In this document: in pieces, positions 1,956 through 3,037 of the stretch
Layout of the letters: each line of letters starts with the position of its first letter
Numbering within the stretch: the first letter of the stretch is position 1
Virus record (IMG/VR): IMGVR_UViG_2531839524_000005
Origin: a virus
Taxonomy: Duplodnaviria; Heunggongvirae; Uroviricota; Caudoviricetes
Direction: 5' to 3' (one strand)
DNA length: 34,440 nucleotides
Program-made: the position numbers and the translations under genes
The notes under the pieces: generated by a model
The model's database searches: none
What the model was told of the DNA's origin: nothing
What the model saw: the letters and a program-made list of their open reading frames with translations, nothing else

Positions 1956-2035
1956 TTTTTTACGCATAAACTGCTTCAATTCCGGTATGCTTCGCAAAGC
2001 TGTATCGCGAGGCGAATAGCAGTTTTGAACATCTA

Positions 2036-2062
2036 AAGACCCCGTTTAATGCGGGTTTTTTT
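2036..2062 (+). terminator. Terminator candidate downstream of the Q-like gene (tR'-like)
   Basis: Short GC stem cccg / cggg with 7-nt loop followed by a run of seven T. Stem is short, so moderate confidence. Confidence 0.4.
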
Positions 2063-2311
2063 ATGCCCAAAAACGAAGTAGTGCGTTAAAATGTGATGGT
2101 CGGGAGTATACAGACTTTTATATAGCACTGCGTAAAAATCAATTTATCCGGGGTAAATGTCAATTTGCTTATTAAAAAAAACAAAAAGATAAATTTATAG
2201 CAATTGTGTTTCTTTGGGTTGAAAGTTTTAATGTCGTCAGTATTATCTGAAGCGGTTCTGAGGAGGGGGTTTCCATTGCTCGGCCACGATACTTCCGAGG
2301 AACCAATTAAC

Positions 2312-2387
2312 GCCGACTTAGCTCAGTAGGTAGAGCAACTGACTTGTAATCAGTAGGTCACCAGTTCGATTCCGGTAGTCGGCACCA
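2312..2387 (+). tRNA. tRNA-Thr (anticodon TGT)
   Basis: 76 nt. Acceptor stem gccgact/agtcggc, D-arm gctc/gagc, anticodon stem actga/tcagt with loop cttgtaa (anticodon TGT), T-loop ttcgatt, discriminator A, CCA encoded. One A-C mispair at 52-62 of the T-stem in my fold. Confidence 0.75.
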
Positions 2388-2390
2388 TAT

Positions 2391-2465
2391 GCGGGTATCG
2401 TATAATGGCTATTACCTCAGCCTTCCAAGCTGATGATGCGGGTTCAATTCCCGCTACCCGCTCCA
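2391..2465 (+). tRNA. tRNA-Gly (anticodon TCC), glyT-like
   Basis: 75 nt. Acceptor gcgggta/tacccgc, anticodon stem tcagc/gctga with loop cttccaa (anticodon TCC), T-stem gcggg/cccgc, discriminator T, CCA encoded. Very close to E. coli glyT as recalled, with a compensated acceptor-stem change. Confidence 0.8.
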
Positions 2466-2828
2466 GCAGAGGACGATGCTAGGCTGTTTCAGGCACTGAC
2501 ACATTATATGTGTGGGATGTTTTACCCTAACTCCTTACCACATCCTGTTCTGTAATGAATATTATTTATTACGGTACCAGTGTTGTTTTTTTACAATAGT
2601 GGAATGGTGCATTACTGGTGGAGATTTGTATTTCCTGGCAGGGCTGGTAATGTATCATTCCGGTGTTGTAAATAACACCCCAGAGACGTTCCTCAGTGCG
2701 AGGGGGGTTGAAAGAGTCGGTTTTGCGGGAAACCACAGCATCCATGCAGGACTGGATGTTTCGGGAGGCACCCGACGTCTCTGGTCATAATAAAATCATA
2801 GTGTTCTCTTCATGCCATTTTATGCCAT

Positions 2829-2858
2829 AGACCGCCACGCCAGGCGGTTTTTTTTATT
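2829..2858 (+). terminator. Rho-independent terminator
   Basis: Perfect 6-bp stem accgcc / ggcggt with 6-nt loop, followed by a run of eight to nine T. Confidence 0.6.
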
Positions 2859-3037
2859 CAGAATTCAGTATTTATGCGGCTCGCTACGGCGGGCCTTTTT
2901 CATATCCGCGCCACGCCCAGCGCATATCAAAAACCACAGAGCCTTTCAGGGGTGAGCTTACGGGATGGTCAGTGTGACTTTCTCTGTGGGCTGGTCACCC
3001 CCGGGCGCAGGCCCACCCACTAAGAGGAAACGTCACT

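Follow-up and report, generated by a model that had tools for sequence, protein, structure and literature searches.

The window analyzed here is the whole 34,440-nucleotide (nt) stretch of the IMG/VR virus record IMGVR_UViG_2531839524_000005 (Caudoviricetes), and our subject is the interval at positions 1956 to 3037. The locus is of lambdoid type, in a Rac-like prophage of enterotoxigenic Escherichia coli (ETEC) of the O169:H41 type, and the interval lies between a Q-like antiterminator gene and the lysis genes; O169:H41-type ETEC chromosomes are 99.9% identical to it. Most of the interval is taken up by a cassette in which a candidate promoter, a leader hairpin, two tRNA genes, a structured RNA related to the small RNA (sRNA) STnc100, and an intrinsic terminator follow one another on the plus strand. 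An earlier interpretation of the same DNA, made without database searches and referred to here as the sequence-only reading, had recognized the terminators and the tRNA genes and described the remainder as a long noncoding stretch. Loci compared with the window are designated by L and a number, and all features described are on the plus strand unless the minus strand is named.

A tRNA pair and a conserved structured RNA

Both tRNA genes are bona fide and of host type. ARAGORN and the Rfam tRNA model (RF00005; gathering score, 29 bits) call a tRNA-Thr(UGU) gene at 2312 to 2387 (ARAGORN, tgt; 73.8 bits) and a glyT-like tRNA-Gly(UCC) gene at 2391 to 2465 (tcc; 65.5 bits), with the 3 nt between them that the sequence-only reading had reported. 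The tRNA-Thr gene is identical to thrU of E. coli K-12 at 76 of 76 positions, and the A-C mispair that had been noticed in its T-stem (A52/C62, window positions 2363 and 2373) is real and is marked on the Rfam NC line; because the gene is identical to thrU, the mispair is native and is no argument against function. The tRNA-Gly gene matches glyT at 72 of 75 positions, differing by a compensatory acceptor-stem pair (C6U with G66A) and by G56A in the T-loop, and G56 is retained in most cassette copies of the gene. By this comparison with the host genes, neither is a pseudo-tRNA.

Downstream of the tRNA pair, positions 2466 to 2858 constitute a conserved, plus-strand structured RNA. The spacer domain (2466 to 2589) has small hairpins inside a stem, S0 (GGCACUG at 2492 to 2498 paired with CAGUGUU at 2578 to 2584), and is followed by a U-run at 2586 to 2592. 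The H1 hairpin (2590 to 2672), an inverted repeat (I1) of 83 nt and approximately 35 bp, takes part of this U-run into its base. H2 (2680 to 2784) is a five-helix junction with an STnc100-like core, closed by P1 (2680 to 2689 with 2775 to 2784), and its hairpins are CCUC-AGUGC-GAGG, GGUGGUU...AACCAC, CAUCCA...UGGAUG, and UCGGG-AGGCA-CCCGA. An AU-rich linker (2785 to 2828), mostly unpaired in the RNAalifold consensus and variable between lineages, joins H2 to the terminator T1 (2829 to 2858; stem at 2829 to 2850, then U8). We note that the P2 loop AGUGC (2699 to 2703) and the P5 loop AGGCA (2766 to 2770), motifs common to canonical STnc100, are complementary to each other through UGC/GCA; this complementarity and the cloverleaf-plus-arm topology suggest a P2-P5 tertiary contact, for which the few loop variants give too little variation for clear covariation.

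The structure is supported by covariation. The folding energy of 2466 to 2860 is well below that of shuffled sequences (z = -5.4), and among the 36 distinct sequences of alignment A2, for which RNAalifold gives a structure of 75 pairs, 94.4% of cells are paired, compared with 40 to 52% in controls in which the partners were slid. Changes on both sides are found in 20 pairs (6 to 10 when slid), and the covariation score is 0.194 (0.05 to 0.08 when slid). H1, which is helix 2 in this alignment, contributes 26 pairs with 96.4% of cells paired and eight pairs changed on both sides, and in the divergent lineages L064, L075, and L058 its pairing is kept while its sequence is replaced. T1 is helix 11, paired in 93.3% of cells with stems that differ by lineage (CCGCC/GGCGG, CCGTC/GACGG, and AGCCG/CGGCT). 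For H2, a joint alignment (A7; 28 pairs) that was fitted to the model, and so favors structure, has 98.0% of cells paired, versus 41 to 54% when slid, and both sides change in 19 of the 28 pairs, versus 2 to 6. The spacer domain is less well supported than H1 and H2: S0 (7 bp), which RNAalifold predicts from 18 spacers (alignment A5), hardly varies and has changed on both sides once. Because G-U cells (11.9%) exceed A-C cells (1.7%), with the opposite-strand structure pairing 84.3% of cells, the RNA is read from the plus strand, codirectionally with the tRNAs and the late genes. What the sequence-only reading had called a long stretch with no convincing open reading frame (ORF) does lack a conserved ORF, but most of it is this RNA.

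The two ends of the cassette are marked by signals of its own. A candidate sigma-70-like promoter lies at 2219 to 2246 (TTGAAA at 2219 to 2224, a 16-nt spacer, and TATTAT at 2241 to 2246), agreeing with the consensus at 10 of 12 positions and placed 7 nt upstream of the leader start GGTTCT at 2254. Other cassette lineages have hexamers equally far from GGTTCY, and the spacers between them are unrelated in sequence (TTGAAA-16-TAATAT, TTGCGA-16-TATCAT, and TTGAAG/TTGAGG-16-TATTAT), such that the candidate hexamers occupy a fixed position in four lineages. The leader forms a predicted hairpin (2254 to 2304) with a GGTTCY/RGAACC outer stem and a GGGGG/CYCCY inner stem, ending 7 nt before the tRNA-Thr gene; RNAalifold on 15 leaders (alignment A6) gives 11 pairs, with one covarying pair (pair 6, C-G to U-A in five sequences) and inner pairs that vary via G-U. 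At the 3' end, T1 had already been proposed as a strong terminator and is recovered by a terminator scan of 1800 to 3700, which reports eight sites on both strands compared with 2.5 ± 1.5 in shuffles. A second terminator-like hairpin, T2 (2878 to 2901; 2878 to 2895 plus T5), is outside the cassette, in a block upstream of the TerB gene, and approximately 2869 to 2930 matches O157 and other prophages that lack H1 and H2. A promoter within the spacer for a separate H1-H2 transcript was considered and rejected, as the TACAAT at 2592 to 2597 is not conserved in the alignment with other lineages.

Kinship with STnc100 and spread of the cassette

STnc100 is known from Salmonella, E. coli, and Shigella as a prophage-encoded sRNA. 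In a 575-nt search, its Rfam model (RF02076; gathering score, 47 bits) aligns to 2655 to 2827 with 20.6 bits (E = 0.027), with the same junction, with P1, P2, P4, and P5 on the model helices, and with the common motifs GUGCG and GGGAGGCACCC (cmscan). The best score in the window's lineage is that of a plasmid member, L058 (35.5 bits; E = 2e-4), while the EPEC sRNAs PasD1 and PasD2 (EPEC, enteropathogenic E. coli) score 37.7 and 41.4 bits, and canonical STnc100 copies score 86.6 bits (in L134) and 129.8 bits (downstream of stx2B in L003). The match is reciprocal, in that an H2 covariance model (R1, built from alignment A4) finds canonical STnc100 (L003, 852 to 963) at 30.3 bits (E = 7.5e-7); R1 also retrieves a third lineage (L076, L078, and L104) at 76.7 bits, with the P3 and P4 helices compensated. 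From these comparisons of sequence and predicted fold, we conclude that H2 is best placed in the STnc100 superfamily, as a divergent branch that scores under the Rfam membership line. Rfam-based annotation misses the window RNA because its score is below the STnc100 threshold; in 2466 to 3040, an Rfam search at E ≤ 10 reports only sub-threshold models, namely, miRNA-precursor hairpins on H1 and STnc100 on H2, and no riboswitch, ribozyme, tRNA-like, put, 6S, or RtT match.

Both RNAs consist of a multi-helix junction closed by an outer stem, with loops GUGCG and GGGAGGCACCC, then a linker and an intrinsic terminator, and in lambdoid prophages both occupy the late leader that separates Q from the lysis genes, STnc100 being downstream of stx2B in L003 and after the same Q allele as that of the window in L134. 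They differ in that P3, P4, and all of the stems have different sequences, and in that the window's lineage has a tRNA array, a spacer domain, and H1 upstream, none of which is seen before the L003 copy of STnc100. Because both can occur in one prophage (L003 and L134), the window type and STnc100 are paralogous lineages, not alleles. In L003 (1 to 4808; E. coli SA53-3, NZ_CP076279) the order is stx2a, canonical STnc100, a decayed methyltransferase gene, the tRNA-Thr/Gly and H1-H2 cassette, and subAB, and from this gene order the two STnc100-type RNAs coexist and the cassette adjoins toxin genes. STnc100 has been reported 75 nt downstream of stx2B (PMC12370729). L134 (1935 to 2195 and 2491 to 2677) represents the commonest arrangement with the window's Q allele, in which a tRNA-less, partly deleted H1/H2 directly follows tR' and STnc100 lies approximately 300 nt further on.

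Zhu, Shabalina and Storz (2026; preprint 10.64898/2026.05.13.724894) report that STnc100 and PasD fold alike and that both originate from prophages. The PasD sRNAs of EPEC E2348/69 were validated by northern blotting and detected with many partners by Hfq RIL-seq (in which interacting RNAs are ligated and sequenced) (PMC8550237; Pearl Mizrahi et al. 2021); Hfq-dependent stability is reported for the Pas set, although the RNA-seq levels of PasD1/2 change little in a delta-hfq strain (PMC8550237). Their predicted seed is just upstream of the terminator (PMC8550237 supplement; preprint 10.64898/2026.05.13.724894), and by analogy the linker at 2785 to 2828 is the likely Hfq-binding and seed region of the window RNA. 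PasD1 and PasD2 resemble that RNA in their location in the Q-to-holin interval of a prophage, their STnc100-like fold, and their terminator with a U-tail, but have no direct sequence similarity to the window, lack the GUGCG loop, and follow a DUF3927 gene rather than tRNAs. The link from the window to Hfq-dependent PasD is transitive, because the window's RF02076 score falls far short of the gathering score and R1 barely detects PasD. Kinship with PasA, PasC, and Esr41 was rejected, as the PasA and PasD regions of E2348/69, used as blastn queries (word size 7) against 1900 to 3800, give only chance matches of 10 to 20 nt.

The cassette is widespread but far from universal. When 5,426 complete E. 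coli genomes are searched by distant blastn with 2578 to 2860 as the query, 425 of them match, and 198 of these matches cover at least 80% of the query; 39 of the matching places are on plasmids, and most of the listed matches carry no annotation. Pattern scans of IMG/VR yield approximately 100 loci, and among deposited phage records 2 of 50,697 have the element. Among the species representatives of the Genome Taxonomy Database (GTDB), a first, exact-pattern scan found nothing, and a second found Escherichia ruysiae only, plus chance matches in GC-rich genomes. In 91 of the 99 instances not at a locus edge, a tRNA array precedes H1, ending 96 to 119 nt upstream of it (median, 113; n = 87 for spacing); the arrays are mostly Thr-Gly and sometimes Met-Lys-Thr-Gly or Met-Arg-Thr-Gly. 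The 2026 Pas preprint reads nearby tRNA matches as integration-site remnants (10.64898/2026.05.13.724894).

The neighborhoods vary. Upstream of the cassette is either Q or a DNA methyltransferase gene, and downstream are TerB, holins, essD, the subAB toxin operon, or, on plasmids, a drug/metabolite transporter (DMT) gene. In the partial record of a phage encoding the LT-IIb enterotoxin, the cassette is upstream of holins and lysis genes, with eltIIbAB beyond. Divergent copies are present on IncF-type plasmids among remnants of IS3 and IS110 insertion sequences (L058, 2400 to 2860, on pCeylon31IncF, and L061); the L058 copy adjoins a degenerate tRNA-Gly ('tRNA-OTHER') and lies upstream of a DMT transporter gene. 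Conversely, with Q held constant, the sequence beyond it changes: among the 80 IMG/VR loci that carry the window's Q allele (94 to 100% amino acid identity), 56 have only Q and the next ~107 bp in common and then diverge, and a tRNA-Thr gene is found at most 1,200 nt downstream in 17 of the 43 such loci with a parsable Q end.

Morons, after Hendrix, are independent promoter-gene-terminator inserts. The cassette resembles them in its presence or absence among related phages and in its varied surroundings; as to its own ends, the terminator is well supported, and the putative promoter consists of hexamers conserved in four lineages. The sequence-only reading had described this part of the locus as tRNA cargo in the Q-to-lysis slot. 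The tRNAs are indeed there, but they and the RNA make up a mobile cassette with its own candidate promoter, leader hairpin, and terminator.

Proposed roles of the cassette

We favor, with a probability of roughly 55%, the interpretation that approximately 2219 to 2858 is an autonomous, moron-like tRNA-sRNA transcription unit inserted downstream of the module formed by Q and tR'. Its transcription, its processing, its binding by a chaperone, and any target are inferred here from the DNA. In a lysogen, the cassette's own promoter would drive a transcript of approximately 600 nt ending at T1, with T2 as a backup, and the lysis genes would remain silent; during lytic growth, Q-modified polymerase arriving from upstream would read through the whole unit. 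The tRNA-processing enzymes would free both tRNAs, providing extra decoders for ACA and for GGA/GGG codons. The trailer, of approximately 390 nt, may persist as a stable RNA whose 3' part (H2, linker, and U-tailed terminator) would be a divergent member of the STnc100/PasD group, and it would most likely act in trans as a chaperone-bound, base-pairing regulator. The H1 duplex most likely serves in processing or stability, for instance as a site at which RNase III would part the tRNAs from the sRNA.

The codon usage of the late genes is consistent with a codon-supply role for the tRNAs, although not specific to it. Comparison of 30 late ORFs with 41 K-12 genes (Fisher test) gives 13.8 versus 5.4 ACA codons per 1,000 (P ≈ 1e-10) and 15.1 versus 6.1 GGA codons per 1,000 (P ≈ 2e-12), an enrichment of about 2.5-fold of the kind that the sequence-only reading had anticipated. 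We note, however, that the enrichment of AGA, AGG, and ATA, which have no matching tRNA in the window, equals or exceeds this (3.6- to 7-fold). Several other observations likewise weigh against an autonomous tRNA-sRNA unit of the STnc100/PasD kind. The evidence for the cassette promoter is a match to consensus hexamers; the RF02076 score of H2 is far below that required for STnc100 membership in Rfam; and R1 gives no significant match to PasD (6.5 bits; E = 0.057 in 701 nt). Apparent conservation and pairing are inflated by the way in which the alignments were made, from searches anchored on patterns and, for A7, by fitting to the model. The H2 loops (CAGUGCG, GGGAGGCACCC, and GUUUAGCGGGAAA) are very strongly conserved, which is unusual for a simple base-pairing sRNA, and the linker, the putative seed, is the least conserved part. 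Finally, some lineages have H1, a short linker, and the terminator without H2, which is dispensable there. Target prediction by duplex energies inside the window gives no outlier, the best z scores being approximately -4 to -5 among approximately 3,400 scanned windows.

Some of these observations would be expected if the structured region acted only in cis, as a transcription insulator and a platform for RNA processing and stability with no function in trans, an alternative that we regard as unlikely while giving it more credence than the others. H1 and the spacer would then direct cleavage of the tRNA precursor and protect its 3' end, and T1 and T2 would keep polymerase that started at the cassette promoter, as well as unmodified polymerase, from reading through into the lysis genes. 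RNase III cleaves long near-perfect duplexes, and H1 is one; its spacing from the tRNA array is constant at 96 to 119 nt, T1 and T2 stand in tandem directly before the TerB, holin, and endolysin genes, and both the poor conservation of the would-be seed in the linker and the occurrence of H1-only variants fit such an arrangement. What it leaves over is H2: a 105-nt five-helix junction with invariant loops and compensatory changes is needless for a terminator or a processing site, and the same core occurs without tRNAs in canonical STnc100 and in the L076 lineage. Moreover, the many RIL-seq partners of its relative PasD (PMC8550237) indicate trans activity.

It is also conceivable, and in our view rather improbable, that the H2/STnc100 core is a fold-dependent RNA (a tRNA-like mimic, a protein- or ligand-binding domain, or a recognition element for tRNA-processing enzymes) and not a base-pairing sRNA. 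The topology invites the comparison, as H2 is a cloverleaf with an extra arm, in which P1 (6 bp, and 10 bp in the window), a 2-nt linker, P2 (4 bp), P3, and P4 are followed by a 5-bp P5 that abuts the 3' strand of P1. H2 also occurs in a tRNA array context, its loops are more conserved than its stems, and the two motifs held in common with canonical STnc100 are the mutually complementary UGC/GCA loops. Against this, no tRNA model matches 2466 to 3040 at E < 10, the loops do not have the sizes of D or T loops, loop-loop covariation is not clear among the few variants, and the varying neighbor genes suggest no ligand or protein partner. A similarly small chance attaches to the version in which the STnc100-type junction is a folded functional RNA processed from the trailer of a phage tRNA operon, with H1 as the processing duplex; if it were true, the window RNA and the STnc100/PasD RNAs would share a structured domain, such as a protein decoy or a tRNA-enzyme or RNase P mimic.

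The coding potential of the region is slight. ORFs of 92 amino acids (2512 to 2790) and 31 amino acids (2580 to 2675) are present, but a Pfam search with the former gives no match, H1-H2 homologs are 190 to 197 nt long with length differences that are not multiples of three, and a stop-free frame is kept in at most 10 of 36 homologs. The Prokaryotic Genome Annotation Pipeline (PGAP) annotates nothing over 2466 to 3037 in the E. coli records inspected, and two records have a hypothetical coding sequence over the RNA gene. A protein-coding reading was rejected for the lack of a Pfam match to the 2512 to 2790 ORF and of any frame conserved among homologs. That the region is a decaying gene remnant, a filler, or a small-protein gene, as its two ORFs and its want of annotation might suggest, is thus very improbable, since approximately 75 pairs are kept by compensatory changes across lineages that are 70 to 80% identical, and this covariation also disfavors an absence of function.

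For an autonomous tRNA-sRNA unit there are two instructive comparisons. The late-leader slot between Q and toxin or lysis genes is known to hold tRNA cargo, and the tRNA pair is ordinary phage cargo in this sense. The window is like the ileZ-argN-argO array of Shiga toxin (Stx) phages in that tRNA genes of host type, serving codons of rare use, stand in this slot, but its tRNAs are Thr-UGU and Gly-UCC, are coupled to a structured RNA, and are bounded by a promoter-like site and a terminator; L033 carries both kinds of array. The other is 3'ETS-leuZ, an sRNA sponge processed from the glyW-cysT-leuZ operon's trailer. It offers a parallel as a functional RNA that derives from a tRNA operon's 3' external transcribed spacer (ETS) and stops at the terminator of that operon, but it is chromosomal, short, unstructured, and unrelated in sequence, whereas the window trailer is approximately 390 nt long and highly structured, and its processing is hypothetical. 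3'ETS-leuZ appears as '3'ESTleuZ' in table S2 of PMC8550237.

What is new at this locus is an RNA gene of approximately 280 to 390 nt, a variant of the STnc100/PasD kind coupled to a tRNA operon. Phage tRNA arrays are thereby physically linked to a family of prophage sRNAs associated with virulence, STnc100/PasD, and the cassette adjoins toxin operons (stx2a and subAB) and is also carried by the LT-IIb phage. If expressed in lysogens, the RNA would be an added member of the prophage regulatory repertoire of ETEC and of E. coli that makes Shiga toxin (STEC), and its well-defined structure is suited to probing the role of the conserved STnc100 core.

The Q-linked module and neighboring genes

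The gene immediately upstream (1413 to 1955) is a Q-like antiterminator gene of the DUF1133 family, outside the cassette. Its product matches PF06576 (Pfam; E = 7.7e-108), PHROG 753 ('anti-termination protein Q-like'; E = 5.5e-79), and PF06530 (Phage_antitermQ; 27.7 bits, cutoff 26), the last being the Q21/Q933W family (Yin et al., preprint 10.1101/651190), and there is a weak, colinear match to the Q21 structures 6p18/6jnx (E = 0.24). The depositors of ON470595 named the gene Q. The placement of the interval between Q and the lysis genes is correct because the 1413 to 1955 gene is Q-like by PHROG 753, PF06530, and the Q21 structures, and the genes downstream (TerB, DUF3927, holins, and endolysin) agree with it. 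In NZ_CP024273 the order is DUF1367 (NinB-like), YbcO, the DUF1133 protein, tRNA-Thr, tRNA-Gly, a frameshifted TerB, DUF3927, two holins, and an M15 endolysin.

Between Q and the cassette is a Q-linked conserved module (1952 to 2040) that contains a candidate late promoter, TTGATT (1952 to 1957, overlapping the Q stop codon), a 17-nt spacer, and TTCAAT (1975 to 1980), and two invariant blocks, GCTTCAAT and GCTTCGCAAAGCTGTATCGCG, that flank a variable 10-mer. The module ends at a tR'-like intrinsic terminator (2041 to 2062; stem at 2041 to 2055 and T7 at 2056 to 2062), which the terminator scan finds where the sequence-only reading had put one, and whose hairpin relatives retain despite base differences in both stem and loop (CCCGTTTAATGCGGG versus CCCGCCATCGAGCGGG). 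The module is near-identical in L004, L060, and the 43 IMG/VR loci of this Q allele that could be parsed, and the sequence beyond the terminator is unrelated; 1952 to 2062 goes with the Q allele and 2063 to 2218 does not, such that this terminator is the end of the Q-linked conserved block. We note that TGCTTC occurs twice, 16 nt apart (TGCTTCAAT and TGCTTCGCAA), at 1972 to 2010, inside the blocks that are invariant among loci with this Q allele; the pair may be a Q-binding direct repeat.

Short pR'-tR' transcripts are known, such as lambda 6S RNA and StxS of Stx phages. The module resembles their loci in its candidate promoter at the Q stop codon, its conserved initial transcribed region, and its terminator approximately 75 nt downstream, and it is plausible, but unproven, that 1952 to 2062 is laid out as a pR' with a short terminated transcript. 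It differs in its weak hexamers, in the lack of sequence similarity (no Rfam match), and in being separate from the tRNA-sRNA cassette. A late-promoter function of the 1952 to 1980 site is a tentative assignment: the hexamers are weak, the -10 candidate has no A at position 2, a consensus promoter scan does not report the site, and the 80 loci with this Q allele are too alike (94 to 100% amino acid identity) for hexamer conservation to resolve the promoter. The sequence-only reading, which had not confidently located the late promoter and had offered the TTGATT near the Q stop as a weak candidate, came to the same outcome.

Further features lie outside the interval. The TerB-family gene (3038 to 3464) is split into overlapping ORFs at 3038 to 3235 and 3141 to 3464, and PGAP labels it 'frameshifted' in a near-identical ETEC chromosome. 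RNA-OUT, the antisense RNA of IS10/Tn10, is matched on the minus strand at 34143 to 34212 (97.3 bits; gathering score, 41), indicating a copy of IS10 at the window's far end. After the terminase genes, the gene at 9674 to 11110 (L001, 15719 to 17155) carries the PGAP name 'anti-CBASS protein Acb1 family protein', given here as annotated.

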